Assembly (NCBI GenBank): GCA_002483765.1
Contig: DLIO01000109.1
Location: 2,455 to 66,454 of the forward strand
DNA from: Lentisphaeria bacterium UBA7640
GTDB lineage: Bacteria; Verrucomicrobiota; Lentisphaeria; Victivallales; Victivallaceae
Direction: 5' to 3'
Length of the DNA stretch: 64,000 nt
Shown: piece after piece, positions 144 through 59,223 of the stretch
Layout of the letters: the number at the start of each line of letters is the position of its first letter
How positions within the stretch are numbered: the first letter of the stretch is position 1
Made by a program: the position numbers and the translations under genes
Notes under the pieces: generated by a model
Told to the model about the DNA's origin: nothing
The model's database searches: none
Seen by the model: the letters and a program-made list of their open reading frames with translations, nothing else

Positions 144-146
144 ATT

Positions 147-1202
147 ATGATCAACGTCAAACTTGACGGCATTAGCAAATCATACACCCGCGGAAAAACC
201 GTTCTCGAACCGATTGACTTGGAAGTAAAAGGAGGCGAACTTTTTTTTCTACTCGGCCCCAGCGGTTGCGGCAAATCCACTTTATTGAGAATCATTGCTG
301 GGTTTGTGAAACCCGATGCCGGACAAATATTTTTTGACGGAATCGACATTTCCAATTTAACCCCGGAGAAACGTGGCGCCGCTATGGTATTTCAAAGTTA
401 CGCGCTGTGGCCGCACATGACTGTTCGAGAAAACATTGCTTTCGGTTTGGAAATTCAAGGAATTAAAGATGCCGAGAAAGAACGGCGAATCACTGAAGCA
501 CTGGAGCTTGTGCAGTTAAGTGATTTAACTAGTCGCAAACCACCTTCGCTCTCTGGTGGACAACAACAACGCGTGGCTCTCGCTCGTGCTATCGTCGTCA
601 GCCCAAAACTGCTATTGCTGGATGAACCGCTATCCAACCTTGATGCCAAGTTGCGTGACTCCATGCGAGTAGAAATTCGTCGCATTTGCAAAGAAGCACA
701 ACTAACTGCGATTTATGTGACTCATGACCGCAAAGAAGCGCTCAGTATGGCTGATCGTATCGCATTGCTTAACTGTGGCAATCTACAGCAAGTCGGAACT
801 CCGCGCGAAATCTACCGCCATCCCACAAACGTCTTCTCGGCTGGTTTTATTGGCGACTGCAATTTATTACCAGGAAAAGTCACAAAAACATCTTCACGCA
901 ACTGTGTAATCCAGACTGCGGCAGGATTGATGGTCGCGGAAAATTTTTCAGCTGGACTCCGCACTGGGGCTGAAGTGACTTTGATGATCCGCCCTGAAGC
1001 AATTAGTCTTGGCGTCGGAACAATTAACAATTTCACCGCATGCGCTACCGATGAAAGTTTTTTAGGTGAATCTGGACAATGGAAACTCCAAGGCGAAGGT
1101 TTTCAATTAAATTGGCTGGAATTAAATTCACGAGAAAGAAGCGCGGATAACAAGGTAAAATTTCACATTGCTGCTGAAAATATCGTCGTTTTGGATTCTT
1201 GA
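147..1202 (+). CDS. ABC transporter ATP-binding protein (PotA/FbpC/MalK-type importer ATPase)
   Basis: Walker A GPSGCGKST, signature LSGGQQQRV, Walker B LLLLDEP, H-loop VTHD, and a C-terminal TOBE-like extension. No permease or binding-protein gene is adjacent. Confidence 0.9.
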   Translation: MINVKLDGISKSYTRGKTVLEPIDLEVKGGELFFLLGPSGCGKSTLLRIIAGFVKPDAGQIFFDGIDISNLTPEKRGAAMVFQSYALWPHMTVRENIAFGLEIQGIKDAEKERRITEALELVQLSDLTSRKPPSLSGGQQQRVALARAIVVSPKLLLLDEPLSNLDAKLRDSMRVEIRRICKEAQLTAIYVTHDRKEALSMADRIALLNCGNLQQVGTPREIYRHPTNVFSAGFIGDCNLLPGKVTKTSSRNCVIQTAAGLMVAENFSAGLRTGAEVTLMIRPEAISLGVGTINNFTACATDESFLGESGQWKLQGEGFQLNWLELNSRERSADNKVKFHIAAENIVVLDS

Positions 1203-1234
1203 AATTAGCGCGCGCATAATGCGCGCGCTAATTT
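1202..1234. repeat. CG-rich palindromic element, copy 1 (aaattagcgcgcgcatAatgcgcgcgctaattt)
   Basis: Perfect 33-bp palindrome with an A at the centre. It overlaps the last base of the ABC ATPase stop codon. Member of the 9-copy family. Confidence 0.9.
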
Positions 1235-1288
1235 CAGCAAAAAAATAATTAAACATAAAAATGGCTTTGATTATTTTCCATTAACATG

Positions 1289-1316
1289 TTGAAAAATATC
1301 ATTTCGATTATATATT
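1289..1316 (+). promoter_or_regulatory. Candidate sigma70-type promoter for rplM-rpsI-argC
   Basis: TTGAAA (1289-1294), 16-nt spacer, TATATT (1311-1316), about 110 nt upstream of the rplM start. Pattern match only. Confidence 0.3.
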
Positions 1317-1425
1317 CATTGTTCTTGTTGTTTGCCGACCCGATCTCCGGCTTTCACTAAGATGTTGTAATATCTGTTAAAAGTTTGTAAACCTGAAAAA
1401 ATAACTAATTATTGAGAACTAAAAA

Positions 1426-1854
1426 ATGAAAACCTATCTCGCGAAAGTTGGAGAAATCGAACGCAAACATCTGCTATTCGACGCCTCCGAAGCACCACTC
1501 GGAAGGCTGGCGGTAAAAGTCGCTAACGCACTCCGCGGCAAAGACAAGCCAACCTATACACCACATATTGATACCGGAAATTTTGTTATCGTGGTTAACG
1601 CCGCTAACGTTGTTCTTAGTGGCAACAAAAGCACTGATAAAACCTATGAAAGCTACAGCGGATATCGCAGTGGACTGAAGATTGTCACCGCTGATGTGGT
1701 TCGTAAAAAGAACCCGGAACGCATGGTCAAAGAAGCTGTCTGGGGCATGCTCCCTAAAGGCCGTCTGGGCCGTTCAATCTTCCGTAAGCTCAAGGTCTAT
1801 CCTGGCCTAGAACATCCGCACTCCGCACAACAACCTGAAAAAGTATCTTTCTGA
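1426..1854 (+). CDS. rplM: 50S ribosomal protein L13
   Basis: 142 aa. The N-terminus MKTYLAKVGEIERKHLLFDASEAPLGRLAVKVANALRGKDKPTYTPHIDTGNFVIVVNA is a typical L13 sequence. It is followed by rpsI, as in the conserved rplM-rpsI operon. Confidence 0.97.
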   Translation: MKTYLAKVGEIERKHLLFDASEAPLGRLAVKVANALRGKDKPTYTPHIDTGNFVIVVNAANVVLSGNKSTDKTYESYSGYRSGLKIVTADVVRKKNPERMVKEAVWGMLPKGRLGRSIFRKLKVYPGLEHPHSAQQPEKVSF

Positions 1855-1866
1855 AGGAATTAAATT

Positions 1867-2265
1867 ATGGCTACTAAGACTACTGAAATTTGGGCCACCG
1901 GGCGTCGTAAATGCGCTGTGGCTAGAGTCCGTATCAAACCAGGAACTGGCAAAGTTGTTGTCAATGGCAAAGAAGCTATTGCCTATTTCGGCAGCGAAGC
2001 GCTGATTGGATTCTTATCCCAGCCGCTCGCAGTCACCGATATGATTGGAAAATTTGATATTGCAGCAAACATTCAAGGCGGCGGCCCCTGCGGTCAAGCT
2101 GGCGCGTTGCGTCATGGCATTTCTCGCGCCTTGGTTAAATATGAAGACTCATTGCGCGCAGTGTTGAAAAACAGTGGCATGATGACTCGTGATTCGCGCG
2201 TCAAAGAACGTAAGAAAAGCGGTCAACCCGGCGCACGTAAGCGTTTCCAATTCTCCAAACGCTAA
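1867..2265 (+). CDS. rpsI: 30S ribosomal protein S9
   Basis: 132 aa with GRRKCAVARVRIKPGTGKVVVNG and the S9 C-terminal tail GARKRFQFSKR. Confidence 0.97.
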   Translation: MATKTTEIWATGRRKCAVARVRIKPGTGKVVVNGKEAIAYFGSEALIGFLSQPLAVTDMIGKFDIAANIQGGGPCGQAGALRHGISRALVKYEDSLRAVLKNSGMMTRDSRVKERKKSGQPGARKRFQFSKR

Positions 2266-2287
2266 GATCTGCCGAGGGAATTCAATT

Positions 2288-3316
2288 ATGTCTAAAATTA
2301 AGGCCGCAATCGTTGGTGCTTCAGGTTATTCAGGCGAAGAACTTATTCGTCTGCTGTTGCGCCACCGCCAATGCCAAATCGGCGTGATTACCTCACGCCA
2401 GTATGATGGGCAAGCAGTGGAAACTGTTTTCCCCCGTTTTTCAGGTAGCGGCCTAGTTTTTTCTAATCCCGATGTCAAACAAATCGCTGAACAGTGTCAA
2501 GTGGCGTTTCTTGCCCTTCCACATGGTTTGGCGAGCGAGTTTGCGATCCCGCTTATCGAAGCAGGACTCAAAGTGATTGACATTAGCGCAGATTTCCGAC
2601 TCCGTAGTACGAAAAAATATCAAGAATACTACAATCAGGAACACCCTTCTCCAGAGCTTTTAAAGAAGGCGGTTTACGGACTTCCTGAACGTTATCGCGA
2701 ACAGATTAAATCAGCTGACATGATTGCTTGTCCTGGTTGTTATCCAACCAGCATCATTCTCGCGGTAGCGCCAATGTTGGAAGCTGGTTTGGCTTCAACA
2801 AAGGGCATTATTTCATCCAGTATCAGTGGTATTACCGGCGCCGGACGCAAGGTCGACTTGCCGTTTATTTTTCCGGAATGCAATGAAAGTGTTCGTGCTT
2901 ATGGCGTTGCCGGCCATCGTCATCTACCCGAAGTTGAACAGGAATTAGCAGTGGCAGCCGGAGTTCCCGAAGTTGCGATAAACTTTATTCCACACTTGGC
3001 TCCCATCAATCGTGGCATTAATTCGACGATTATCATGGACGCCGAACCCGGTTGTTCGATGGATAAGATCACAGAAGCTTATAACAACGCTTATGCTAAT
3101 GAACCTTTTGTACGGGTACTCAAGCCCGGCAAGCTTTCAGACACCAAATATGTAACAATGACTAACGTTTGCGAAATCGGTTATCAACTCGATCCGCACA
3201 CCAATAAACTGATCATAACTTCGACGATTGACAATCTGACCAAAGGAGCATCCGGCCAAGCGGTTCAAAATATGAATATCCGTTTCGGTTTCGACGAAAC
3301 CGAAGGCTTGCTCTAA
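2288..3316 (+). CDS. argC: N-acetyl-gamma-glutamyl-phosphate reductase
   Basis: MSKIKAAIVGASGYSGEELIRLL NAD-binding N-terminus, catalytic-Cys region IACPGCYPTS, and C-terminal DNLTKGASGQAVQNMN. The ATG at 2288 is preferred over the track start at 2189, which overlaps rpsI. Confidence 0.93.
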   Translation: MSKIKAAIVGASGYSGEELIRLLLRHRQCQIGVITSRQYDGQAVETVFPRFSGSGLVFSNPDVKQIAEQCQVAFLALPHGLASEFAIPLIEAGLKVIDISADFRLRSTKKYQEYYNQEHPSPELLKKAVYGLPERYREQIKSADMIACPGCYPTSIILAVAPMLEAGLASTKGIISSSISGITGAGRKVDLPFIFPECNESVRAYGVAGHRHLPEVEQELAVAAGVPEVAINFIPHLAPINRGINSTIIMDAEPGCSMDKITEAYNNAYANEPFVRVLKPGKLSDTKYVTMTNVCEIGYQLDPHTNKLIITSTIDNLTKGASGQAVQNMNIRFGFDETEGLL

Positions 3317-3327
3317 AAATTTTATAC

Positions 3328-3368
3328 AAAAAAAGCGTTGCCTGATTTTTTCTGGCAACGCTTTTTTT
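3328..3368. terminator. Bidirectional intrinsic terminator between convergent argC and arnD
   Basis: 8-bp GC-rich stem gcgttgcc (3335-3342) / ggcaacgc (3354-3361), flanked by an A7 run upstream and a T7 run downstream. Confidence 0.75.
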
Positions 3369-3387
3369 ATTTATAGTAACAATAGTT

Positions 3388-4275
3388 TTACAATGTTTCT
3401 TGGCAAGCCAACCAACCTTCGCGGCCAGGGAATGGCTTTTGAACAATCTTACCTAATGGTGGTTCGCCGGCCGCTTGCACTAAATCCCCTAACGGCACAA
3501 ACTCCCAGCCCTGCGCTTTAGCACGCACAATGAAATCATTGAACATCTCAAGGCATTTTCCACCCTCAGCTTCTGCGTGGATCGTCAGCACATTCAGTTC
3601 ATTCGGCCGAAGCAGTCCCAATAAATGGTCATTAAAGTTAGCGTCAGTAATGCCATTACGCCCGACGACTTCATCATAAGTCGGAAGCGTCACTGGCACT
3701 TGAATCTGTTCTAACGGCTCATCATTGACTACTGGACGAAAAATACTCGTTCCACGACAGTCACTGTTATAAATAAAAGGAAACTTTGCCTTTTCAAGCA
3801 ATAAGCTTTCTGTGCAACGCCAACCGGGAACCGCAGAACAGGTCGGCGAACGATCGCAAATCCCTGCCAACATGTCAAAGCCCTTTTGTAACTCCAAATA
3901 GATTTGGGCACTACTCATTTTTGAGATTTTCGCTTGTTCACGATGATGATCCCAAGCGTGAAGCCCAAGCTCATGACCATCATTGACCGTATCGATAATC
4001 ACTTTCGAGAGGCGTTTGCCAATCTGAGGTCCCGGCCATGCTGTTCCCATAAAAATAATTTCTGGACCATAAAGTCCAGCGGCATTGGTCCGTAACATCT
4101 TAATCAAAAAATCTGGCTTAAGTAGCCGCCACAGATGACGCCCCATATTATCAGGCCCAACCGAGAAGAAAAAAGATGCTTTAAAATGGTGTTTTTCAAA
4201 CAAACGACACAAAGCTGGAACGCCTTTCTTGGTGCCGCGAAATGTATCTACATCAACCCTCAAGCCAATCTTCAT
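3388..4275 (-). CDS. arnD: 4-deoxy-4-formamido-L-arabinose-phosphoundecaprenol deformylase (polysaccharide deacetylase family)
   Basis: MKIGLRVDVDTFRGTKKGVPALCRLF...FFFSVGPDNMGRHLWRLLKP...GLHAWDHH...IHAEAEG is colinear with E. coli ArnD as I recall it. Start placed at the ATG at 4275, which has AGAGGGA about 10 nt upstream; the track start at 4302 adds 9 aa. Confidence 0.9.
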   Translation of the reverse strand: MKIGLRVDVDTFRGTKKGVPALCRLFEKHHFKASFFFSVGPDNMGRHLWRLLKPDFLIKMLRTNAAGLYGPEIIFMGTAWPGPQIGKRLSKVIIDTVNDGHELGLHAWDHHREQAKISKMSSAQIYLELQKGFDMLAGICDRSPTCSAVPGWRCTESLLLEKAKFPFIYNSDCRGTSIFRPVVNDEPLEQIQVPVTLPTYDEVVGRNGITDANFNDHLLGLLRPNELNVLTIHAEAEGGKCLEMFNDFIVRAKAQGWEFVPLGDLVQAAGEPPLGKIVQKPFPGREGWLACQETL

Positions 4276-4431
4276 ATTTTTATATCCCTCTGAAATCATC
4301 ATATTTAGACAGCTATTGCGCGCTAAATCTTATTGTTTTAATATTAAAAGAACAGGTGCCACGCGCACTACAACGAGCACGTGCGGCACCAATTTTGAAA
4401 CTAATATTCACTTATCTTGTTAGTGCGAATA

Positions 4432-6429
4432 TTAGTCTAGAGTGAAAAACTCCTCCGATTCAATCGCTTCTTTAAGGAAAAAATCCAAAGTCGTCTCAAT
4501 CGACTGATCAAGTTTAATCTCGGGTTGCCATCCGAGCATTTTATTGGCATTTTTAATGCTCGGCTTACGATGCTGCACATCTTGATAGCCTTTGCCGTAA
4601 AAAGCTCCGCTCTCGACTACGATCGTACCAGCAAAAGGCGGGAACTTCGCGCGTGCTGGATGTTTGTCGAATTTGTCGACCAACATCTCGGCCATCTCTT
4701 TAATGCTCGCTTCGTTGTCAGGATTGCCAATATTGATGATCTGTCCATCACAATTGCCATCCTTGTTTTCGATAATCCGATAAAGGGCTTCAATTCCTTC
4801 AGAGATATCGACAAAACAGCGTTTTTGTTCGCCACCATCAACCAATTGAATCGGAGAACCTTGAACGAGGTTGAGAATCAATTGAGTGATTGCGCGGGAA
4901 CTGCCGATACGGGCAGAAGTTAAGCTATCGAGTTTCGGCCCAATCCAGTTGAATGGGCGGAACAACGTAAAGCGGAGTTGATTTTTGGCACCATAAGCCC
5001 AAATTACTCGATCCAACATCTGTTTGCTGCAGGAATATATCCAGCGCTGCATACGGATCGGCCCCGTAATTAAGCATGAATTGTCTTCGTCAAAATTTTC
5101 ATCCTGACACATTCCATAGACTTCAGAAGTCGATGGGAAAATAATCCGTTTATCATATTTCACGCAATATCGAACAATACGCAGGTTTTCTTCGAAGTCC
5201 AGTTCGAAAACCCGTAGCGGGTTGCGCGTGTATTCAATCGGAGTCGCGATTGCCACCAATGGAAGAATGATGTCACATTTGCGGATATGATACTCAATCC
5301 ATTCGCGATGGATAGAGATATCGCCCTCAAGATAATGAAAATTGGGCTGATCGAGTAGATGTTCGATGTAGTTCGCGCGAAGATCAAGCCCGTAAACTTC
5401 ATATTTACCACTGGCTAACAAACGATCACTGAGATGACTGCCGATAAAACCGTTAACACCAAGAATCAAAACACTTTTCTTACGAGATGCTTCTTTACGG
5501 CAACGAACATCGCCAGTGAAGACCATATTCTTAACAATTCGGGCTTCCGCGGCGAACTGCGAACCGGTCATTAACAAACCATCCGCCAACTGTGCGGACT
5601 CAACCTTTATTGCCCCTTTACCGCAAGCAATAATTAATGGATTAGCGTTAATCAGCGTGCCAGGAGCAGCGCCGTTATTATCTTCAACCGTGCTTACTGT
5701 CCAGAAAAAACATTTACGGTCGCCCATAAAACTGTAGGCGCCAGGATAAGGGCGGGTCACGGCACGAACCAAATTACGCACTTCAGTCGCAGATTTATTC
5801 CAGTCAATCTCACCGTCTGTGGGCTTGCGTCCACCGTAATAAGTAGCCTGCGCGTGATCTTGCGGGGTGCGTGGTGCCGTTCCTGACTTGATTAATGGCA
5901 AAACCTCTGCCAGCATTGCTGCCGCAGCATCAGTCGCTTTCAAATGAACCGATTTTGCGGTATCACAATCTTCAATCGTAATCTTGTTTTGTGCAACAAT
6001 ATCACCGGCGTCAGGTTTTGCGGTCATGTAATGCAAAGTCACTCCAGTCTCTTTTTCACCATTGACCAATGCCCAGTTAATCGGCACGCGCCCGCGATAT
6101 TTCGGCAATAATGAACCATGTAAATTCAAGCATCCGTGTTTTGGAATATCCAGGATCTCGGACTTGATCATATTGCGATAATAAAACGAAAAAATAATGT
6201 CAGGATTGATTGATTTTATTTTATTGACCCAAACTGGATGATTCACATCTTCCGGAGCAAATACTGGAATGCCATGCTTGAAAGCAGTTTCCGCGACAGA
6301 ATCGAACCAGATATTTTCGCCGGGATTGTCTTTGTGAGTGAACACCGCCGCGATTTCGAAACCATTTTTTAGCAGGGCTTCAATGCCGGCACAACCGATA
6401 TTGTGATACCCAAAAACAACACATTTCAT
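4432..6429 (-). CDS. arnA: Bifunctional UDP-4-amino-4-deoxy-L-arabinose formyltransferase / UDP-glucuronate C-4'' decarboxylase
   Basis: 665 aa. N-terminal formyltransferase motifs ([30 protein letters not shown]) and a C-terminal SDR decarboxylase domain ([12 protein letters not shown]; [50 protein letters not shown]), near-identical to remembered E. coli ArnA blocks. Confidence 0.95.
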
Positions 6430-6467
6430 AACACTCTCCAGATAATTTTTTTTAATAATTCTATATT

Positions 6468-7430
6468 TTAATTTTCTTTACGTCCAATCACATTTTCTAC
6501 GAAATAACGTGGCCTAGCGCGCACGTCATAATACATCCTTCCAAGGTATTCGCCAAGTAATCCAATTGCAATCAACTGCACTCCAGCAATAATAAACACG
6601 AAAGCCATTAGTGTGAAAACACCGTCTGCAGCCCATTCCGCATCATAATAAAAGCGCAAAAAAAGCACTATTAAACCAAACAAAATACCACCAGTAGACA
6701 CCAGACCTCCAACATAACTCATGATCCGCAGTGGGGCAGTCGTCATACAGGTCAAAAGGTTAAATTGTAGATTGATTAATTTCATAAATGAATACTTTGA
6801 CGTCCCAATAGTGCGTTCGCTGTGCCCAACGTCAATCTCGCAAGTTGAACGCGCAAAGCTGTTACCAAGTACAGGAATAAAGGTGCTGCGTTCATTGCAC
6901 GCGAGCATCGCTTTAACTATTGGCGCACGGTAAGCTCGCAGCATACAGCCGTAATCTTTCATTTTAACGCCAGTCGCCTTCTGGGCAATGCGATTTACCA
7001 CCCACGACGGAGCTCGGCGAAAAATACTATCCTTACGCTTGGCGCGCACTGTGCCGATCACATCATAGCCCTCTTCAGCTTTTTCGACTATTCGTGGAAA
7101 TTCTTCTGGTGGGTTCTGTAAATCTGCGTCAATCGTAATGATCAAATCGCCACGAGCTTCAGCGAAGCCAGCCATGATGGCAGCGTGTTGCCCATAATTA
7201 CGATTTAAAATAACCACAACAACTTTGCCGTCATTTTTTTCAGCAGCCTCAACCATAATCGGGATCGAACGATCAATACTACCATCATCGACCAATAATA
7301 ACTCATAATCTTTGTTAGTCTGCTCAAGTGATTTCAAACAACGCTCAATCAATTCTTCCAGACAACCTTCTTCGTTGTAAACCGGAACCACTACTGATAC
7401 TTTCTTTACTGAATAATCTTTTTTCAACAT
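6468..7430 (-). CDS. arnC: Undecaprenyl-phosphate 4-deoxy-4-formamido-L-arabinose transferase (GT2)
   Basis: 320 aa. GT2 motifs [21 protein letters not shown] and [11 protein letters not shown], two C-terminal TM helices, and its position inside the arn operon. Confidence 0.88.
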
Positions 7431-7434
7431 TTTG

Positions 7435-9150
7435 CTATTCCTTGCTTGGGATTAGTTTCCAACATTTTAATTTCCTGGCACCGGGTTTTTCAAATGGAAC
7501 ACCTTTTTCCTGATATTCCGCATTTTCAACCGGAAAGTCTGGGAATACGGTTAAGATACTCGCTAAAGTGCGATTTCTCGTTTCTGCAACCAAATACTTA
7601 GGCTCGTCGTTAGAATTCACAAAATCCTTCAACTCGTCCGCTGTTTGCAATACCGTTATTGGTTTCTTCGCATTCATATAAAAAATTATTTTAGGATATA
7701 TTTTCGGAAAAAAAGCAATATTTTCAGTCTTAATTCCGTTTAAACCATTTTTCAAGATATGTGCAAAATCCTTTTCATTACGTAAATTACTTGCTGCGGG
7801 ATAAAGTACCGCAAAAGCTGCGCCAATAATCAATGTGCTTGAAACGATAACGGCTGCCCACGGTAACGGTAACATGGTATAGCGAGCAATCAGTTTACGA
7901 CCAAAGACCAAAATAATGAAAGCCGGAATAGCCACAACGGGCATCGTCCAGATTATTACCCCCGGAATTAGTTTGATGTCGTCAGGCAAAAAATCTAACT
8001 TTAAGAAATATGGAGCAATGGGAATCGCGAGAACCGCTATTCCAGTTAAAACAATCAGTACCCAACGATGAACTTTTGCCCACCAGTCGCGCCATTTATA
8101 TTCCCCCGAGCCAGCGATATATTCCGCGATTAAAATCGTTAAAAATGGCACAATCGGTAAAATATAATACCAACGACGCGAGCCTGATGCGGAAAACATT
8201 AAAAAAACCACCAGATTCACCAGTAATAGCCAGCGAGTATTGAGATCAAGTTTTTTCCATTTCGTGCTTACCGCAGCGATTGCGATGAACAATAATACTG
8301 ACCACGGCGCCATGATTTTAGGAACGTGAAAAAGATAGATAAAAAAAGGTTCATCATTATGATCAAAGGGCTTGAATACTCGTACGATATTTTCACGCCA
8401 CACTAACTCTAAACCAGTCAACCCAGAGTTAGCAGTATCAAACCCAGCCGGCAACGGCAATCTTGCAGAGATAAGAAATGTTGAAAGAAAAACCCCTAGC
8501 CCAATTAAAAACGCCGCTCCATGAGAAATTTTAAGGTGTTTTTTCCATGTTCCGTCAAGCAACAAATAAATAATTACCAATATCGGAGGAAGTGCCAAAG
8601 CTGATAACCCTTTCGTCAATGCTCCACCAAAACAGATTACCCAAAACAGCAAGTAGCTCCAGAATCCCCCTTTCTCTTTTGTTTGAAAGAACCACAACAC
8701 TGCTAAAATCACTGCGGTCATATTCATCATGTCCGCAGCCGCCAAACGTCCCTGAAAAATGAATCCGTAGCCACAAAGCAATAGCCAACCGCTGGTAATA
8801 CCAACCGCCCTGCCCCATATTTTTGTCGCGAACTTAATAGTCGCATAAAGTGCGATCAATGCCGAAAGCGCGCTGGGCAGGCGAATTATAAATTCGTTGA
8901 GAATTCCGGTAATTTTAGCCAATAAAACAATCGGCCAATACGAAAGCAAAGGTTTATCAAAGTAAACTTCGCCGTTAATAGCTGGATGAAACCAATCACC
9001 GGTCATTAACATTTCGCGCGCCACTTCGGCCCAGCGATCTTCAGAAGCCCATAATTGATTAACGCCGAGCTGAAAAACCAGTATAAAGAGCGCCATTGTC
9101 CAAAAAGTGAAGACTTGAAAATTACTGGCTTTGGTTTCTGTTTTAATCAT
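7435..9150 (-). CDS. arnT: 4-amino-4-deoxy-L-arabinose-lipid A transferase (GT83/PMT-like, polytopic membrane protein)
   Basis: About 570 aa with more than 10 predicted TM helices. The N-terminal loop [35 protein letters not shown] is typical of ArnT/PMT_2 enzymes. Start placed at the ATG at 9150 (GAGGC RBS); the track start is a TTG at 9165. Confidence 0.82.
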
Positions 9151-9161
9151 TGGCCCTAGCC

Positions 9162-10307
9162 TCAATTCCCGCTCAACACGTCTTTAATTGCTTGAACTAC
9201 GTCATCTTGGTCGCGGTCACTCATTCCCGAAAACAGCGGTAAAGAACAGATCCGATCAGAATTGAATTCGGTATTCGGTAATGACCCGCGCTTGAAGCCC
9301 ATATTCTCGCGATAGTACTTTTGGACATGAGCAGCAGTAAAGTGCAATCCAGTACCGATATTTTTATTTTTCAATTTTTCCATAAATTCATTGCGTGTCA
9401 TTTTATCTGTAACAACTCGAACAATAAAGAGATGCCAAGCATTCTTAAAGTCATAACCTTCAGGATCGCACAGAGGTTCAATGCCATCAACTCCATCCAA
9501 AAGCTCTCGATAACGCAATGCTAGTTGTTCGCGCCGCGCATTATTTTCACTAAGACGTTTCAATTGCCCAAGACCAAGTGCGGCCTGCATATCAGTCAAA
9601 TTATATTTAAATCCGGGAAAAATCACTTCTGCTTGAGGAGATCTGCCACGGTTAGAGCGATCAAAAGCATCAACTCCCAAACCATGAAACTTCCAAGAAC
9701 GAAACTTTTTTGCAATCTCTTCGTCATCTGTGACCAAGGCTCCACCTTCTGCAGTGGTAACGTTCTTTATAGCATGAAATGAAAAAAGACCAGAGCCGTC
9801 GGCACAAACATGTCGACCTTTGTAATATGTGCCAATTGCATGAGCAGCATCATCAACAACTGGAATATCGCCAGCAACTGCTCTGATGCCATCAATATCA
9901 AAAGGAGCTCCTGCATAATGAACTGGAATGATTAATTTGGTTTTCGCAGTGATACAGGACTTCACTGATTGTGGAGTAACCATTAAAGTGTCGCGATCGA
10001 TTTCAGCAAAAACTGGGGTTGCGCCAGCCAAAACAATCATATTTACAGTAGAAACCCAAGTCAGTGAAGGAGTAATTACTTCATCTCCGGGACCAATATC
10101 CATCACCTTCATCAAGATATGCATTCCTGCAGTCGCGGAACTCAAAGCCACCGCATATTTATTACCGGTAATCCGACAGAGTTCTTCTTCAAACTCAATA
10201 TTTTTCGGCCCATTAGTGATCCAGCCTGAACGCAACACATCTACGACAGCTTCAATATCTGATTCTTTAATATCAGGTTTAGTGAAAGGCAAAAACTCGT
10301 TTCTCAT
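9162..10307 (-). CDS. arnB: UDP-4-amino-4-deoxy-L-arabinose--oxoglutarate aminotransferase (DegT/DnrJ/EryC1 family)
   Basis: MRNEFLPFTKPDI...GWITNGPKN...ITPSLTWVSTVNMIVLAGATPVFAEIDRDTLMVTP...FSFHAIKN (PLP-lysine region)...PGFKYNLTD is colinear with remembered E. coli ArnB. Confidence 0.93.
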   Translation of the reverse strand: MRNEFLPFTKPDIKESDIEAVVDVLRSGWITNGPKNIEFEEELCRITGNKYAVALSSATAGMHILMKVMDIGPGDEVITPSLTWVSTVNMIVLAGATPVFAEIDRDTLMVTPQSVKSCITAKTKLIIPVHYAGAPFDIDGIRAVAGDIPVVDDAAHAIGTYYKGRHVCADGSGLFSFHAIKNVTTAEGGALVTDDEEIAKKFRSWKFHGLGVDAFDRSNRGRSPQAEVIFPGFKYNLTDMQAALGLGQLKRLSENNARREQLALRYRELLDGVDGIEPLCDPEGYDFKNAWHLFIVRVVTDKMTRNEFMEKLKNKNIGTGLHFTAAHVQKYYRENMGFKRGSLPNTEFNSDRICSLPLFSGMSDRDQDDVVQAIKDVLSGN

Positions 10308-10337
10308 TTCAATTCCTCACATATTGTTAAGCTCCCT

Positions 10338-10365
10338 AATATATCAATAGAAGCTCAAAAATCAA
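10338..10365 (-). promoter_or_regulatory. Candidate promoter of the arn operon
   Basis: On the minus strand: TTGATT (10365-10360), 16 nt, TATATT (10343-10338), about 30 nt upstream of the arnB start. Pattern match only. Confidence 0.25.
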
Positions 10366-10675
10366 TCATTAATTCCTACAGATTTGAGAAAATGGCAACG
10401 GAGGTTTTTAACTCCAGATAGACACAAAATTATCGCCAATGGAAGAGAGTAATGTGAGTCTTTTATCCAATAGAGTAAGCCCAAATCTCTTTGCGTTCTT
10501 TGTTTTATTCGTGGTTACAACCCACCCTTTTTCCGTTATAACTTCTAATCTCAAGATTCCTATCCCCATTCAACAATGTAAAAAGGCAAAGATCTTTTTT
10601 TAATAGTTCTTCAATTGCAACCCAGACTAAAAAGCACTAGATTATATACCGAAATAAAAATATAAAGGAAATATT

Positions 10676-11227
10676 ATGAAGAATAAATTAATGTCGTCAT
10701 GTGGACTATTCGCTATCTTGTTTTTAGTTAGTGGTTGTTTTTCGGCCTTGACGCCAATCAAAATCAATTATTATGATCTAAACATGCCTGCCCCCAACCC
10801 CCTAACAGATACCCAAATTATAATTGAAAGTCTCGAAAACATGTCAGGTTCCGGCGAAAAAATGCGATACCGCACAAATAACAATCAACAATTGGTTGAC
10901 GATCAAAATAGATGGATTCAATTTCCAGATGAGATGATCGTCCGCTATCTTAACACCATACTTGGTGGCAACGCTTCGGATAAATCATTCCGAGTGAGAG
11001 GACAATTAGACGTTTTTGAAATTAATTTAACCCAAAACACCGCTTCTCTACAGTGCTCTTTCACTATTTTTGAAGCTGGAACCGAGCAGCAACAATCCAA
11101 AGTTTACCGTAAAACTCTTGAACTTAAAGAACAATCTCCACAAGCCTTTGCAGAAGCGTTCTCCAACGCTGCCGCTGGGCTATCTGACGAGATAAAAAAT
11201 CTGATTGAAAACTGGAGCAAGCGGTAG
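10676..11227 (+). CDS. Lipoprotein, possibly ABC-transport-auxiliary (PqiC/YmbA, DUF330-like)
   Basis: Signal peptide with lipobox LVSG|C, about 180 aa. The post-Cys segment ...INYYDL... resembles YmbA-family lipoproteins. The family assignment is tentative. Confidence 0.45.
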   Translation: MKNKLMSSCGLFAILFLVSGCFSALTPIKINYYDLNMPAPNPLTDTQIIIESLENMSGSGEKMRYRTNNNQQLVDDQNRWIQFPDEMIVRYLNTILGGNASDKSFRVRGQLDVFEINLTQNTASLQCSFTIFEAGTEQQQSKVYRKTLELKEQSPQAFAEAFSNAAAGLSDEIKNLIENWSKR

Positions 11228-11240
11228 TTCAAAAAGTAAG

Positions 11241-11999: not shown

Positions 12000-12018
12000 T
12001 TAATGTAATTATGGTTTT

Positions 12019-12049
12019 AATTCGCGCGCGCATAATGCGCGCGCGAATT
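12019..12049. repeat. CG-rich palindromic element, copy 2 (aattcgcgcgcgcatAatgcgcgcgcgaatt)
   Basis: Perfect 31-bp palindrome 20 nt downstream of the stop at 11999. Confidence 0.9.
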
Positions 12050-12163
12050 CAAGACTGTAGTTATAGAGTTTATGCCTCTCGATTACTCAATGATATACAC
12101 GAGCTGTATGGGCGATAACATGCTGTCCGACTCTCTACCCTCAGTCAATTACTCCCAATCAAT

Positions 12164-12191
12164 TTGACATTAAAAAAAAACTGTGTATGAT
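12164..12191 (+). promoter_or_regulatory. Candidate promoter upstream of methylaspartate ammonia-lyase
   Basis: TTGACA (12164-12169), 16 nt, TATGAT (12186-12191). It would give a 5' UTR of about 180 nt. Confidence 0.35.
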
Positions 12192-12378
12192 AATAATATT
12201 AAATCGGATTGGTAGAAAGTTTAAGCTCAAAACCTAAAATCAGGAGAAAGTCATAAGAAGATGAATTTTTGGTGGTGTTTTATAAAAAACCCATTAGATG
12301 CGCAAAGTGTATTTTACGTGTAAAAATAAAATTTCAAGCAAAAGAACCAATCTTTGAAAATTGGTTTGGGAGACTCAG

Positions 12379-13815: not shown

Positions 13816-13851
13816 TCATTAGAACGAAATTAACAATAGAGAATCAAAATT

Positions 13852-47233: not shown

Positions 47234-47265
47234 AAGCCGGAGCCATAAAGCTCCGGCTTTTTTAT
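47234..47265 (+). terminator. Intrinsic terminator
   Basis: Stem agccggagc (47235-47243) / gctccggct (47250-47258), 6-nt loop, then a T-run. Confidence 0.78.
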
Positions 47266-54076: not shown

Positions 54077-54265
54077 TAAAAAACGTGTCTGTGTACGCCG
54101 AAACAAGTGATAAATTGGAATATTGTTTTAAACAATGAATGAAATCTTTTACACAACACGATTGGTACAACCGACGCGACGTCCGTACCCAACAAAACAA
54201 TTTTTTCTTAACCTTTAAAACTCATTTCATTGTATTTTTATTTTTTGGAATTATCTTGGCTAGTC

Positions 54266-54667
54266 ATGAAAAATGTTTTGAAAAAAATTTCTATAGTACT
54301 GATTTTTACACTGGGTTTGTGTGGCGTTATCCAATTATTGCCAGCATGTCACTGCACTGAGAATGTTCTAAATCCGACTACAATCGAGTGTATTACCCAG
54401 AGCTGTTTTGAACATCTCATCGAATTTGGCGCGCCTTCAGACCAAGACTGCGCGCAATGTCGGCAGTGTCCGCATCAAGCAGAAAATAAAACCGTATTCG
54501 ATATAAATCTACAAAATAATTCTAGATACTATAAAAGTACACTCGCCGCAAAAAGTCTCGAGTCATTCCAAATAGCACACCAGTCGTTCACGCAAAAATA
54601 TCCGAACCGCAATGCTCGGATTTTCTATTTCACCGAAACCCTACGAACCGTCATCATCAGATCCTGA
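54266..54667 (+). CDS. Small exported Cys-rich hypothetical protein
   Basis: ATG at 54266 gives the signal-like MKNVLKKISIVLIFTLGLCGVIQLLPA. The mature part starts with a CHC...C...C...CAQCRQCPH cluster. Sits directly upstream of czcB/czcA. Confidence 0.5.
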   Translation: MKNVLKKISIVLIFTLGLCGVIQLLPACHCTENVLNPTTIECITQSCFEHLIEFGAPSDQDCAQCRQCPHQAENKTVFDINLQNNSRYYKSTLAAKSLESFQIAHQSFTQKYPNRNARIFYFTETLRTVIIRS

Positions 54668-54687
54668 TTGCGTTAAATTGTTTCTTT

Positions 54688-54720
54688 AAGTTCGCGCGCG
54701 CATTATGCGCGCGCGAACTT
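54688..54720. repeat. CG-rich palindromic element, copy 8 (aagttcgcgcgcgcatTatgcgcgcgcgaactt)
   Basis: Perfect 33-bp palindrome between the Cys-rich ORF and the efflux adaptor gene. The flank is AAGTT rather than AATT. Confidence 0.9.
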
Positions 54721-54765
54721 AACAACTCGATTTACGTGTATTACAAAAACAATCAAGGATCCAAA

Positions 54766-56097
54766 ATGAAGAAGAAAACTAATCTCCGTTATCTATTGAT
54801 GGTCACTTTGGCCATTATCGCAATTTTAATTATTGTCGCTTTTAAAAATCACGAACTATTTGAAAGTAAGCAAGACAAACATAACCATACTTCGGCTAAA
54901 AGCACAGAACATGCTCATGGAATAAAATGTGAGGACGATCACGATAAAGATCACGACGCCGAGAAAAAAGATGATCATACCCAAAAAGATGATCACTCAA
55001 AATGTTCGGATGAAGAGCCACAAGGCTTAAAACTTAATACCGAACAACAGCATATTGCTGGAATAAAAGTCGTTGCAGCAACAATTGGCAAAGTCGCCAA
55101 AGAACTGCATTTAAACGGTGAAATAAAATATAATGCAGAAAGAATTGCTAGAATAATGCCACGTTTACCAGGGTTTGTCAGTAAGATCAATGCGGTCACT
55201 GGACAACAGGTCAAGCAAGGTGAAATCTTGGCGGTCTTGCAAAGCCAGATGCTTGGCGAACTTTATTCAGCTTATAACGCGTCCAAAGAGCTGGAGGTAT
55301 TAAATCTTTCAGAACTAAAAATCGCTGAGCGGCTGCGTGGCACTGGTGCCATGGCTGAAGTGGATTATTTGCGAGTCAAGCGCCAATATGCGGATACCAG
55401 AATCGCTCGACGACGCAGCGAAGGAATTCTCAAATCATTGAATTACAATCCTGAACACACCCAACATGATTACCACGATGACGATTTGGCCACTATTTGT
55501 ACCGACTATGAAATGAAATCACCAATGTCTGGGGTGATTATTGAACGCGATATCGCGTTGGGTGAAAATTATGCTGAAGACAACGAAAAGCCATCATTTA
55601 TTATTGCTGACTTGAGTACATTATGGTTAGAGTTGCGAGCGCGGCAAGATGACTTATTAGAGTTAACCATCGGACAAAAAGTCAGCGTTAATATAGGTTT
55701 TGGCGCTGGTTTGTATTCCGGAAAAATTACGTATATCGGCCCTGCCCTAAACCAATCAACTCGTACGTTAACAGTCCGGGTAGAGCTTCCAAATGAAGAC
55801 GAAAAATTAAAACCAGGAATATTTGTCGGTGCAACCGTTCACCTAAATGGTGGCGAAGAGATGGTGGTGGTGCCACGTGAAGCTGTACAATTGCTGGATG
55901 GCGAGATGGTAATTTTTGTTCCAGACGGCACGGGTTTTACCCCTAAACCGGTCAAGATTGGCCGTTCGAACCGTAATTTCGTTGAAATTTTATCGGGCCT
56001 GGAAGTTGGCGATAAATTCGTCGCCAGTGGCTCATTCGCGCTGAAATCGACGATATTGCTGGAAGGGATGGATCCGCATGCTGGTCATGGTCATTAA
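54766..56097 (+). CDS. RND efflux periplasmic adaptor (CzcB/CusB-like) with His/Asp-rich N-terminal segment
   Basis: TM anchor, then KHNHTSAKSTEHAHGIKCEDDHDKDHDAEKKDDHTQKDDHSKCSDEE, then barrel-sandwich/beta-barrel MFP regions, and C-terminal HAGHGH. ATG at 54766 with an AAGGA RBS. Confidence 0.85.
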   Translation: MKKKTNLRYLLMVTLAIIAILIIVAFKNHELFESKQDKHNHTSAKSTEHAHGIKCEDDHDKDHDAEKKDDHTQKDDHSKCSDEEPQGLKLNTEQQHIAGIKVVAATIGKVAKELHLNGEIKYNAERIARIMPRLPGFVSKINAVTGQQVKQGEILAVLQSQMLGELYSAYNASKELEVLNLSELKIAERLRGTGAMAEVDYLRVKRQYADTRIARRRSEGILKSLNYNPEHTQHDYHDDDLATICTDYEMKSPMSGVIIERDIALGENYAEDNEKPSFIIADLSTLWLELRARQDDLLELTIGQKVSVNIGFGAGLYSGKITYIGPALNQSTRTLTVRVELPNEDEKLKPGIFVGATVHLNGGEEMVVVPREAVQLLDGEMVIFVPDGTGFTPKPVKIGRSNRNFVEILSGLEVGDKFVASGSFALKSTILLEGMDPHAGHGH

Positions 56098-56112: not shown

Positions 56113-59100
56113 ATGATTGAAAAAATTATTAAAACTGTAGTTCAATTCAGAGCTTTGACTCTCATCATAATCCTAGCCTTGACGAGCTATGGAGTTTATT
56201 CATATATCGATTCGCCACGCGATGCGTTCCCAGATATTTCGCCAGTAATGGTGCCGATTTTTGCTGAAGCCGATGGTATGGCACCGGAGGAGATTGAACG
56301 CTTAATCACTATTCCGATTGAAACCTCAATGAGCGGATTGCCTGATGTCAGCCTAGTTAAATCAACTTCAGCTTTTGGAATGGCGGTGATTTATGTATAT
56401 TTCGAAGATCAGGTTGATACCTATTTCGCACGACAGCTGGTGTCAGAACGCTTATCCGCGACAGTATTACCAGAAAATGTCCAAGCGCCGGCACTTGGCC
56501 CGATTTCTAGTGGACTCGGCCAGGTTTTTATCTATTATCTGGACGTCGATAAAAGTGTCGATACTACTGGCAAAGATGTCGGCGCGTATCTGCGTGAATT
56601 AAATGATTTTGTCGTTAAACGCCAACTACAAACGGTTTCTGGAGTGACTACGATATTGTCAATGGGCGGACATGTGCTTCAATATCAGATTTCGCTAAAT
56701 CCAGATCAGATGCGGCGATACGATATTTCTCTCGATGATGTAACCAGAACTGTAGTCGCTAACAATCGCAATGTTGGCGGTCAATATGTTGTGCTGGGTG
56801 CTGAAGAATTCCTAGTTCGAGGCATCGGATTACTGGAAAACATGGACGATATTCGTAATTTGCCATTGAGAACTGCAGATGGCATCACCGTTACTATCGC
56901 TGACATTGGCACCGTGGAATATGGTCATGAAGTGCGCCGCGGTTTAGTCAGCCTTAACGGAGAAAAAGAGATCGTCGCTGGAATTGTGCTGAAACTTAAT
57001 AGTGCAAACACGCTGGAAGTTATCACTGCATTGCACCAAAAGATTGACGAAATTCAAACAGGCTTGCCTAAAGGTGTAAAGATTGTCCCTTACTACGACC
57101 AAGCCAACTTAGTCGAAAACGCGGCAAAAACTATGGAAAACGCGCTTCTTCAGGGCGTGATTTTAGTCGTGATTCTGTTAGCGTTATCGATGTGGAACTG
57201 GCGAGCTGCGCTGATTGTGACCTTCACCATGCCATTTTGTGCGGCGGTCGCGATCATTGCAATGCGCCAATTCAATATTTCCGCAAACTTGATGTCGCTT
57301 GGTGGCATCGCGGTCGCGCTCGGGATGTTGGTGGATGGTTCGATCATTGTGGTGGAAAATATTTCAAGACACTTAAATCTTCCCGAAAACCACGGCTTCA
57401 GTCGTTCAGAAATAATTATAAAATCAACGATTGAAGTTGGCCGTCCGATTGTTTTCGCGTTGTTAATCGTCATTTCGGTATTTATTCCATTATTCATGCT
57501 TGAAGGCGTGGAAGGAAAGATGTTCAAACCGATGGCTTTCTCGGTAGTAGTGGCATTATTTGGTTCCATTTTCGCCGCAGTGGTTTGCGTTCCAGTATTA
57601 GCTACATTTATGATGAGAAGCTCTAATCGCGCCAAAGGTTTGCGTCGAACTATGACAAACCGTTTTTATCGCCCGCTGTTGCAACAAGCTTTGCGGATTC
57701 GTTGGATTTTATTTTTGATAATGTCGGTAGGAATTATTTTTAGTGTGTTTACACTTCAAAGAACGGGCCGCGAATTTATGCCTACACTGGAAGAGGGATC
57801 GTTATGGGTAACCGTCATGATGGCGCCCTCAATCAGCCTGAATGAGGCGGAAAAAGTAATCCGTGTACTTGATCGGATAATTCTGGAACATGATGAAGTA
57901 AAAAGCACGGTTTCGCGGATTGGACGCCCTGAAGCTGGCAGCCATCCGCATCCAGTTAATTTTGCGGAAATCCAGGTTGAATTGAGCCCGAAAGACGGGA
58001 AAATTGCTGGGGCAATTAAACGGCAACAGATCGTCGCGGAACTGCGGAAAAAGCTCAAAATTTATCCTGGAGTTAATATTAATTTTTCACAACCGATTCA
58101 AAATGTCTTTGAAGAGCTGTTGTCTGGAACCCGTGCTTATTTTGCGATTAAACTTTATGGCGAAAATCTTGATATCTTGCAAACCAAAGCTGAAGAAATT
58201 CGACACGCCGTAGCAGAGGTCCCTGGAGTCGTCGATCTAGCGACAGAGCAAAATTACGGTCAACCGCAGATTCAAGTTGTTTTGAACCGCGACAAAGCTG
58301 CGCGACTGGGGGTGTCTGGCAGCGAAGTGATGCAATTGATCGAGAGTGCAGTTGGAGGCGAAAACATCAGCACAATTTATCAAAACACCCGCCGTTACCA
58401 TATCAATATGCGGGTGGCTGAACAATTTCGAAACGACCCTGCTGCGCTTGGAGAATTGCCAATCAAAATAGGTAACGACACAATACCGCTGCGGCATGTC
58501 GCCGAAATTAAGATCACAACTGGCCCAATTCAGATAAACCGTGAAAAAAATCAACGATGCTGGGCGGTTCAGGGAAATATCTCAGGACGTTCCGCCAGTC
58601 ATATAGTGACCGACATGCGCCAGGTAATAGCGGATAAAATCGTATTACCTCCGGGCTATTTTGTGGAGTTTGGAGGTCAGTTTGAAAATCAGGAACGGGT
58701 AATGCGTAAACTAGCAATCATCGTTCCACTGGTAATCTCAATGATTTTCATGTTACTTTGGGGATCGTTCAAATCGTTGCGCAGCGCGATGATTGTAATT
58801 ACCAATGTGCCACTAGCCTTGATTGGCGGCGTTATCGGCTTATGGATGACTGGCCAAGCGCTGTCGGTGCCGGCAGCGGTAGGGTTTATTGCTTTATTAG
58901 GAATTGCAATGCAGGACGGGGTCGTTATGGTTAGCGAATTCGATGAGTTGCGACGTTCTGGAACGCCGCTTCAGGAAGCGATTTTCCACGGTAGTGAAAT
59001 TCGATTTCGTTCCGTGATTTTAACCACTTTGACCACACTTCTAGGCTTACTACCATTGTTGCTGTCGCAGGGGATCGGAGCGGAGGTGCAGCGTCCATTA

Positions 59101-59199
59101 GCGGCAATTGTCATCTTTGGTTTGTCGTCCTCGACGTTATTAACACTATTTGTGCTACCGTCGTTATACTACGAAGTCGAGCGCAGGTTTATAAAATGA
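56113..59199 (+). CDS. Heavy-metal efflux RND pump, CzcA/CusA family
   Basis: 1028 aa with a 12-TM RND layout. Typical HME-family blocks: N-terminal IIEKIIKTVVQFRALTLII, GGIAVALGMLVDGSIIVVENI, GLLPLLLSQGIGAEVQRPLA. Confidence 0.92.
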   Translation: MIEKIIKTVVQFRALTLIIILALTSYGVYSYIDSPRDAFPDISPVMVPIFAEADGMAPEEIERLITIPIETSMSGLPDVSLVKSTSAFGMAVIYVYFEDQVDTYFARQLVSERLSATVLPENVQAPALGPISSGLGQVFIYYLDVDKSVDTTGKDVGAYLRELNDFVVKRQLQTVSGVTTILSMGGHVLQYQISLNPDQMRRYDISLDDVTRTVVANNRNVGGQYVVLGAEEFLVRGIGLLENMDDIRNLPLRTADGITVTIADIGTVEYGHEVRRGLVSLNGEKEIVAGIVLKLNSANTLEVITALHQKIDEIQTGLPKGVKIVPYYDQANLVENAAKTMENALLQGVILVVILLALSMWNWRAALIVTFTMPFCAAVAIIAMRQFNISANLMSLGGIAVALGMLVDGSIIVVENISRHLNLPENHGFSRSEIIIKSTIEVGRPIVFALLIVISVFIPLFMLEGVEGKMFKPMAFSVVVALFGSIFAAVVCVPVLATFMMRSSNRAKGLRRTMTNRFYRPLLQQALRIRWILFLIMSVGIIFSVFTLQRTGREFMPTLEEGSLWVTVMMAPSISLNEAEKVIRVLDRIILEHDEVKSTVSRIGRPEAGSHPHPVNFAEIQVELSPKDGKIAGAIKRQQIVAELRKKLKIYPGVNINFSQPIQNVFEELLSGTRAYFAIKLYGENLDILQTKAEEIRHAVAEVPGVVDLATEQNYGQPQIQVVLNRDKAARLGVSGSEVMQLIESAVGGENISTIYQNTRRYHINMRVAEQFRNDPAALGELPIKIGNDTIPLRHVAEIKITTGPIQINREKNQRCWAVQGNISGRSASHIVTDMRQVIADKIVLPPGYFVEFGGQFENQERVMRKLAIIVPLVISMIFMLLWGSFKSLRSAMIVITNVPLALIGGVIGLWMTGQALSVPAAVGFIALLGIAMQDGVVMVSEFDELRRSGTPLQEAIFHGSEIRFRSVILTTLTTLLGLLPLLLSQGIGAEVQRPLAAIVIFGLSSSTLLTLFVLPSLYYEVERRFIK

Positions 59200-59205
59200 G
59201 CTATA

Positions 59206-59223
59206 AATTCGCGCGCGAATTTT
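59206..59223. repeat. CG-rich palindromic element, collapsed copy 9 (aaattcgcgcgcgaattt)
   Basis: 18-bp perfect palindrome with the same flanks as the family but without the central CATWATG core. Lies 7 nt after the czcA stop. Confidence 0.75.

Follow-up and report, generated by a model that had tools for sequence, protein, structure and literature searches.

Among described bacterial repeats, the closest counterparts of the element reported here are the repetitive extragenic palindromes (REPs) of Escherichia coli and other proteobacteria, also treated as palindromic units and bacterial interspersed mosaic elements (BIMEs). These are hairpin-forming units of about 35 bp that occur in high copy number, are positionally stable among relatives and lie outside genes, in 3' untranslated regions (UTRs) and intercistronic gaps, some of them less than 15 nt from a stop codon or supplying it. 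They have been proposed to protect mRNA 3' ends and to act in attenuation and termination. A palindrome alike in these respects was analysed in a stretch of 64,000 nucleotides from Lentisphaeria bacterium UBA7640 (family Victivallaceae; assembly GCA_002483765.1, contig DLIO01000109.1, positions 2,455 to 66,454 of the forward strand), called the window below. The Victivallaceae palindrome differs from the proteobacterial units in being near-perfect, with a strictly alternating (GC)4 core and no GTAG next to the stem, in occurring as singlets, in that no REP-associated tyrosine transposase (RAYT) was found near about 200 copies, and in its phylum, Lentisphaerota.

Unlike the GTAG and CGTC superfamilies of REPs, the Victivallaceae palindrome has neither tag, and carries instead GTAA...TTAC across a variable spacer of 8-10 nt. 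CGTC REPs have no dedicated transposase (Di Nocera et al. 2013, PMC3733652). Untagged REP-like families are known in several phyla, and 'many more likely occur' (PMC3733652); the Victivallaceae family fits this untagged class, though it is not among its named families. The REP-like family with this sequence is new, and untagged REP-like repeats as a class were already known. The original prediction of a dispersed REP-like family at gene ends was borne out: the elements were found to be genome-wide, clade-wide and extragenic, with a strong bias towards the 3' ends of genes. The label 'REP-like' is valid only as a descriptive class, as the tag and the doublets of RAYT-type REPs are absent. We lean slightly towards reading the family as untagged REP-like dispersed extragenic palindromes whose most likely role is that of a hairpin at transcript 3' ends.

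Structure and distribution of the palindrome family

The window was searched with the pattern CGCGCGCGCATWATGCGCGCGCG, allowing up to three mismatches, and 100 dinucleotide-preserving shuffles of the window served as control. Seven matches were obtained, at 1207, 12023, 13792, 18879, 33673, 45395 and 54693, against none in the shuffles. The 8-mer CGCGCGCG occurred nine times (1.5 expected), every time within an element. Sequences and flanks agreed at all nine places where copies had been predicted, with none expected by chance, and a relaxed scan of the 64 kb found no additional copies beyond these nine. The density in the window is about one copy per 7 kb. The genes around the copies are ordinary chromosomal ones (a rpoD-like sigma factor, rplM/rpsI, gcvP and an AcrB-family pump).

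The copies had been described as perfect palindromes, which is correct, apart from the centre, for four of the six full copies; those at 33669 and 45391 each have one mismatch, at ±11 from the centre. The copy at 13793 had been regarded as eroded, and proved to have a fully paired outer stem of its own (TGATGAC/GTCATTA, -19 kcal/mol). The unit had also been drawn too short, as copies with GTAA in the left flank and TTAC or TTAT in the right, each about 30 nt out from the middle of the palindrome, give a length of 61 nt.

In the metagenome-assembled genome (MAG) JAAYPP01 the unit is a 37-bp palindrome, TAAA[A/C]TT[C/T]-(GC)4-ATWAT-(GC)4-[G/A]AA[T/G]TTTA. The core (GC)4-ATWAT-(GC)4 is invariant and is followed by an AT-rich outer stem of 7-8 bp that covaries strongly. 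The loop was always ATAAT (96 copies) or ATTAT (83 copies). A palindrome length of 31-37 bp and a stem of 16 bp correspond to the generic size and stem-loop of REPs. When both flanks were folded together (121 arms), (A/G)TTAC was seen 27-31 nt from the centre on either side, even where no gene ends. Of the six full copies of the window, four have both motifs at a distance of 30 nt from the centre (GTAA left, TTAC or TTAT right) and a fifth has the right TTAC only. Among 132 non-redundant copies, strict GTAA/TTAC was found on 21-23% of the arms against a background of 2.3%. In the arms with the least decay the sequence is GAAKTTTAGAAACAAAGTTAC, and this suggests that the palindrome was once longer and that its outer part has since eroded, the putative ancestral unit being of about 61 nt, GTAAC-N8-10-TAAAMTTC-(GC)4-ATWAT-(GC)4-GAAKTTTA-N8-10-GTTAC. 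In the spacer, positions ±19 to ±26 paired no more often than expected by chance when aligned without gaps.

The window hairpins folded as RNA with -19 to -30 kcal/mol (z -3 to -7), far below shuffled controls, and as DNA with -20 to -24 kcal/mol. Across 131 non-redundant copies, 94.8% of the cells of the 16-bp stem were paired. Cells changed on both sides numbered 117, compared to 37.5±4.4 in shuffles (0 of 500 shuffles as high), and two-sided changes were observed in all eight variable pairs. Slid controls gave far lower pairing scores. Positions ±12 to ±15 were 100% Watson-Crick despite A:U, C:G, G:C and U:A variants, the ±14 pair being A:U in 91 copies, C:G in 39 and G:C in one. Wholly different yet paired outer stems were also seen, CCATT/GATGG, CCGCT/AGCGG and AACATC/GATGTT, in addition to the stem TGATGAC/GTCATTA of the window.

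One genome per species was scanned with the 21-nt core. At least 60 loci were found, among them at least 53 in the Lentisphaerae MAG JAAYPP01, which is related to the window organism and not of the same species (65-77% nucleotide identity in one shared gene). Metagenomes contained at least 120 loci, and about 100 of the matches listed had the AT-rich paired flanks of the family; the source samples were mostly digester, landfill and fermentation. Viral contigs had no copies. No copy was found in 9-21 kb of relatives at 52-59% GC, whose ABC-ATPase or GcvPB is 68-81% identical, and the family therefore belongs to a low-GC subclade. It is lineage-specific, occurring in a low-GC subclade of uncultured Victivallaceae (Lentisphaerota). 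The family extends beyond the window, and its copies are not frequent inside coding sequences.

The 21-nt core was also seen singly in unrelated GC-rich contigs, with flanks that are different yet paired (L056 130-150; L108, L120, L177; L161/L170; L numbers designate individual loci). In a Lentisphaeria MAG of 68% GC the core is surrounded by CTACC...GGTAG, a GTAG-like tag, and in soil contigs by CCTTACGC...GCGTAAGG; another flank pair is CCCTC...GAGGG. These GC-rich singletons may represent related families or convergence. Several independent metagenome contigs begin or end inside an element copy (L062-L065, L067, L193), the contig of L065 ending in ...ATTATGCGCGCG and that of L193 beginning with GCGCGCATTATGCGCGCGTG. 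The element appears to break short-read assemblies of its host organisms.

Placement at gene ends

As predicted, all nine window copies are intergenic on our own open reading frame (ORF) map. The distance from the nearest upstream stop codon to the element was 0, 19, 59/30, 90/142, 18, 20, 6, 43 and 172 nt, so that eight of the nine copies begin 0-90 nt downstream of a stop codon; the predicted gene-end placement stands, with a count of eight in place of seven. Among the 132 non-redundant copies, 65 were located between tandem genes, 33 between convergent genes and six between divergent genes. Counting intergenic gaps of at least 30 nt, an element was present in 42% of the convergent, 25% of the tandem and 6% of the divergent ones. 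Eight copies were scored as coding sequence, mostly in short or over-extended ORFs. The median distance from stop codon to element was 19 nt, typically 0-30 nt, and 9 of 98 elements contained the stop codon. For 19 of the 65 tandem copies, less than 30 nt remained to the next start codon; those copies must therefore permit read-through.

Placement of this kind resembles that of bidirectional intrinsic terminators, which are likewise GC-rich symmetric hairpins just past stop codons and favoured between convergent genes. The window has four convergent gene pairs with a hairpin-sized gap. Two of them hold an element (18874 and 33669) and two a canonical terminator, at about 3328-3368 and 47234-47265, where the two terminators had been predicted. 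The two kinds of hairpin are complementary in the window. These two terminators were the only strong canonical ones noticed at gene ends of the window, at the same type of site as the CG palindromes. A scan of positions 1-20000 for consensus terminators gave 14, compared to 21 expected, i.e. not above chance, and reported none of the element copies. The Victivallaceae element differs from bidirectional terminators in having no U-tract, in sharing one common sequence at hundreds of sites in place of independent stems, and in that many copies lie in gaps too short for full termination followed by re-initiation.

The end of the ABC-ATPase gene carries the element in three species: that of the window (A), L065 (B, 84% amino acid identity) and L066 (C, 73%). 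Nucleotide identity of the gene is 78% for A-B and 72% for A-C, and third-codon identity 55% and 46%, respectively. The 37-mers of A and C differ at four positions only, which form two compensated pairs, and core and loop are unchanged. A and B have the derived A:T pair at ±11 in common and differ at the centre base. The element has thus been kept at one gene end through nearly saturated synonymous divergence. At the end of gcvPB, a relative with a 93% amino acid-identical GcvPB (L192) has a canonical terminator in place of the element, with a 10-bp stem followed by T7 (1766-1850; GCAGAGTTGC-AGCCC-GCAATTCTGC, then GCCTGTTTTTTTG), and its convergent neighbour differs from that in the window (18815-18936). 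Terminator and element are in this respect interchangeable. Another hairpin was found at the gcvPB end of an 87% relative. Retention at a gene end through near-saturated divergence, together with ordinary terminators at other sites in relatives, argues for a role at transcript ends.

Transcribed from either strand, the element would form a very stable stem-loop in the 3' UTR, and, canonical terminators being scarce in this genome, it would take the place of a bidirectional one. The stem-loop may pause or stop RNA polymerase, or it may block 3'-exonucleases after termination further downstream. E. coli REPs act as attenuators or stabilisers in intercistronic gaps, and in short gaps of this kind the Victivallaceae element would similarly attenuate or stabilise the upstream segment. 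The ribosome terminating at the stop codon would have to unwind any hairpin that starts 0-15 nt beyond it, and in E. coli such close spacing reportedly lowers the expression of the upstream gene. Selection for a 3'-end role, combined with hairpin-templated correction, would keep the copies alike.

Several observations weigh against a hairpin at transcript ends. A T-tract after the hairpin is absent, as was predicted and then confirmed on the flanks: mixed sequence comes after the terminal ...GAATT of the window copies, and in JAAYPP01 the 3' side of the hairpin has only GAAUUUUA; GAATTTTA with at most 4 T. Intrinsic termination was taken to require a GC-rich hairpin followed directly by at least five U in eight, and canonical intrinsic termination is therefore unlikely for the element. 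The copy in species C (L066, 4340-4380) follows the canonical terminator of a PTS-EIIA gene at a distance of about 95 nt, with about 90 nt left to the start of the next gene, so that it is neither the terminator nor the first hairpin at that gene. About five copies lie between divergent genes, and the gene calls were made by our own crude greedy ORF picker, for which stops are reliable and starts approximate. Positional conservation across species comes from one site. The ±11 pair is non-Watson-Crick in 43% of copies, mostly through CpG transitions. The strand bias of G.U-type mismatches predicted by an RNA role was weak (sense 25 vs 17, p=0.28), and so was that of the centre base (A in the sense strand 40 vs 25, p=0.08). 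Furthermore, the loop is itself palindromic and template switching on DNA is able to generate covariation, so that pairing is no proof of selection on RNA. An RNA role of the element is what we infer, at roughly even chances.

The invariance of (GC)4-ATWAT-(GC)4 might also be accounted for by a sequence-specific 3'-end signal, read on RNA or single-stranded DNA by a dedicated protein in the manner of a conserved mRNA 3' stem-loop, with copies made and kept alike by hairpin template switching independent of any transposase. We regard this variant as quite unlikely. Recognition could alternatively take place on double-stranded DNA or a cruciform, by a dimeric protein (nucleoid-associated, gyrase or a regulator), or the element could act as a Z-DNA or cruciform barrier to supercoiling between transcription units. 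The two-fold symmetry extends over the entire 37-mer with its loop ATWAT, the core is invariant, and copies are found where transcription units meet; gyrase and IHF are ligands of E. coli BIMEs, and alternating CG tracts favour Z-DNA. However, covariation of the outer stem is not expected from independent recognition of half-sites on duplex DNA, (CG)4 is short for a Z-DNA tract, we know of no candidate protein, and the tight placement at stop codons is left without explanation. A duplex-DNA site or supercoiling barrier is accordingly held to be very unlikely.

Copying, turnover and the search for a transposase

The A:T and C:G variants at ±14 each occur at many different loci of one genome, a spread that can have come about only by copying or conversion and not by independent double mutation. 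Among copies that the search pattern had not selected, about half had 1-3 core changes, mostly CpG transitions at ±10, two of them compensated.

Turnover was followed in 37 orthologous groups from near-identical strains, with a flank divergence of 0.29%. The centre base was flipped between A and T in four of the 37 groups compared to 0.12 expected, about 30 times the flanking rate, whereas the remaining 36 element positions showed three differences in 1512; population mixtures or library artefacts may contribute to the centre flips. In one pair of loci with flanks 98.3% identical (L080, ~10314-10350; L146, ~7853-7889), G:C was changed to A:T at both ±10 positions and the centre was flipped, and all three changes would fit a single hairpin-templated event. 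Centre flips and compensated arm changes point to hairpin behaviour at the DNA level, probably template switching during replication. As flips and paired changes fit intrastrand template switching or recombination between arms, stem covariation alone is no sign of selection on RNA. An all-against-all search of flanks for empty sites found only filled ones, among loci that had been fetched by the element itself. The intergenic regions of L065 and L066 are too diverged to align and L019 has a synteny break, so that no target-site duplication is definable there.

These data raise the question of whether the family is selfish or neutral palindromic DNA, kept symmetric by hairpin-templated correction and gene conversion, with a 3'-end bias that results from purging elsewhere. 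Centre flips at a rate about 30-fold that of background, as well as one compensated double change within 1.7% flank divergence, are consistent with such DNA, as are the ongoing decay evident from collapsed, half and core-mutated copies, the CpG transitions in the core of about half of the copies not selected by pattern, the lack of a significant strand asymmetry and the turnover between close relatives at one site, the gcvPB end. On the other hand, correction from arm to arm maintains symmetry but not sequence, and the same site is filled in three species with core and loop unchanged at near-saturated synonymous divergence. Proximity to stop codons and peak occupancy of convergent gaps mirror the placement of terminators, and at one gene end a canonical terminator replaces the element in a close relative. 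A purely selfish or neutral origin of the pattern is considered rather doubtful.

RAYT-type mobilisation was studied with E. coli RAYT and IS608 TnpA, checked against PDB 4ER8 and 2A6M, and with ISDra2 and Sulfolobus TnpA as queries. All stop-to-stop ORFs of at least 60 amino acids were searched by phmmer --max, at first in 0.54 Mb and finally in 1.28 Mb of sequence surrounding about 200 copies. No RAYT or IS200 transposase was found with these single-sequence queries, which may miss distant RAYTs, the best match in the 1.28 Mb near copies having E=0.2-0.3. The top match (L150, E=0.3) is a 68-amino acid non-coding fragment. The predicted absence of a RAYT from the window was likewise seen on protein search, which found no Y1/RAYT gene, and no Y1 transposase was found near the about 200 copies. 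A GTAG or CGTC tag abutting the stem was absent from the position profiles; the stem ends TAAAMTTC/GAAKTTTA, and GTAA/TTAC is located 8-10 nt off the stem in a subset of copies only. Copies are singlets, not inverted doublets or clusters, with nearest neighbours 1.3-4 kb apart and flanking housekeeping genes. The tag and the doublet organisation that define RAYT-type REPs and REPINs are therefore lacking. The genes between neighbouring copies are housekeeping units, e.g. BamD-LptE, NadE and CorA, and none is related to mobile elements.

A RAYT-mobilised REP or REPIN would have its Y1 HUH transposase, TnpA_REP, encoded elsewhere, copying the hairpin with GTAA/TTAC on single-stranded DNA, and any cellular function would be secondary. 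A constant core with covarying outer pairs speaks for mobilisation of this type, and so do sub-variants scattered over many loci of one genome and a conserved tetranucleotide about 10 nt off the hairpin foot on both sides, which resembles the hairpin-plus-cleavage-site layout of IS200/IS605. IS608 cleaves 3' of TTAC. As at IS200/IS605 ends and their miniature derivatives, TTAC is located about 10 nt 3' of the hairpin foot, and structure-dependent recognition would tolerate covarying stems. In contrast to those ends, the Victivallaceae element is fully symmetric (GTAA left, TTAC right), with a single hairpin and no TnpA found. The tetranucleotide at a fixed distance from a hairpin is reminiscent of HUH-enzyme recognition sites, and is taken as a lead only. 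Element ends that provide stop codons have a parallel in REPs, whose termini frequently do so, GTAG REPs included, and GTAG REPs occur in the PVC (Planctomycetes-Verrucomicrobia-Chlamydiae) superphylum (PMC3733652). Against RAYT mobilisation stand the absence of any better transposase match in the 1.28 Mb around the copies, which is the expected location of a REPtron, the stem without abutting GTAG/CGTC, the singlets in place of inverted doublets, and the housekeeping genes between neighbouring copies. Mobilisation by a RAYT is judged unlikely.

Full palindromes accounted for 413 arms and solo arms for 16, the majority of the latter being mutated full copies or unrelated sequence. No solo arm flanked a gene and none was located in coding sequence. 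An insertion sequence with element arms as terminal inverted repeats, or a miniature inverted-repeat transposable element, is disfavoured, since solo arms are essentially absent. An integron attC site was rejected because the elements are dispersed by housekeeping genes on both strands and do not fit RYYYAAC/GTTRRRY. Inverted pairs of DNA uptake sequences (DUS), which in Neisseria double as terminators, resemble the Victivallaceae element, in which a conserved 13-16-mer occurs twice in opposite orientation past gene ends, and both these pairs and Correia elements are dispersed hairpin-forming repeats in that position. Unlike them, the Victivallaceae element lacks solo half-sites, a TA-flanked unit of 100-150 bp and copies in coding sequence. 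About one copy per 7 kb is, in addition, far below the densities of DUS or uptake signal sequences. The scarcity of solo arms and the absence from coding sequence make a function in DNA uptake highly improbable.

The elements matched no Rfam family: at the gathering threshold only tRNA was found, and at a permissive threshold nothing over the elements at E<=1. Literature searches, including those for Lentisphaerae/Victivallis REPs, found no description of this palindrome family as a bacterial repeat in the papers open to searching. Avoidance of GCGCGC, GCGC or CGCG outside the elements was not seen in the window, which gives no hint of a link to restriction-modification.

Individual copies and significance of the family

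The copies of the window and the two canonical terminators are listed in Table 1.

Table 1. Palindrome copies and canonical terminators in the 64-kb window
Position	Strand	Feature	Composition	Context	Folding energy (kcal/mol)
1199-1237	.	Full copy	GAAATTA-(GC)4-ATAAT-(GC)4-TAATTTC; A:T pair variant at ±11; without outer GTAA/TTAC	TGA stop of ABC-ATPase gene (1200-1202) inside left arm; orthologous copy at same gene end in two further species	-29.5
12005-12064	.	Full 61-nt unit	Perfect core palindrome 12019-12049; GTAA 12005-12008, TTAT 12061-12064	19 nt past stop of ORF 11205-11999; tandem same-strand genes	-38.6 (whole unit)
13785-13821	.	Diverged copy	Left core arm with three changes (GCTCGCGT); own paired outer stem TGATGAC/GTCATTA	Next start codon (13852) 30 nt downstream	-19.1 (z -4.1)
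18860-18920	.	Full 61-nt unit	Perfect core palindrome 18874-18906; GTAA 18860, TTAC 18917-18920	Between convergent histidine-kinase gene (end 18814) and gcvPB (end 18937)	
33654-33714	.	Full 61-nt unit	Core 33669-33699, T.G mismatch at ±11; GTAA 33654, TTAC 33711-33714	Between convergent genes ending at 33578 and 33842; same copy in locus L167 (flanks 98.4% identical)	
39017-39034	.	Half copy	TAATGCGCGCGCTAATTT; loop and right arm only (TAAT-GCGCGCGC-TAATTT), left arm deleted; among very few solo arms	43 nt downstream of minus-strand ORF ending at 39077	No hairpin on folding
45376-45437	.	Full unit	Core 45391-45421, A..G mismatch at ±11; GTAA 45376, TTAC 45434-45437	TAA of its GTAA is the stop codon of ORF 44662-45372	
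54686-54735	.	Full copy	Core 54688-54720, G:C pair at ±14 (TTAAGTTC...GAACTTAA); TTAC 54732-54735	Intercistronic: 20 nt past stop of ORF 54230-54667, about 50 nt before likely ATG of resistance-nodulation-division (RND) efflux operon	-30.3
59206-59223	.	Collapsed copy	AATTCGCGCGCGAATT; shape expected from central deletion	6 nt past stop (59199) of AcrB-family gene	-6.5 only
3328-3368, 47234-47265		Bidirectional intrinsic terminators	A-tract, GC stem, T-tract, e.g. AAAAAAAGCGTTGCC...GGCAACGCTTTTTTT	Each between convergent genes	

The GTG start given for ORF 54736-56097 is probably wrong, as an ATG is present after AAGGA about 50 nt past the element (…caaggatccaaaATGaagaag; window 54721-54775). 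If the ATG start is correct, the RND efflux operon begins about 50 nt past a very stable hairpin, which leaves no room for a promoter of its own. The sole RNA gene detected in the window, that of tRNA-Leu(CAA) at 44424-44509 (-), is located in the 349-nt gap that precedes the gene with the 45391 copy at its end. The PTS-EIIA terminator of species C is also found in the 84% relative (L065), there without an element copy. The window has a GC content of about 43%. Masking of the elements leaves a window-wide excess of CpG (observed/expected 1.24) and GpC (1.32) and a deficit of TpA (0.70); GCGCGC occurs 27 times outside the elements, compared to 6 expected from base composition.

With this palindrome, a well-defined REP-like family becomes known in the phylum Lentisphaerota, for which none had been described, and its consensus is precise enough for annotation. 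The flips between A and T at the centre and the paired arm changes in near-identical strains constitute a natural record of hairpin-mediated template switching. They also call for caution, in that covariation in DNA palindromes is no evidence of RNA structure. Retention across species, combined with fast flipping of the centre base, is the most informative feature of the family.

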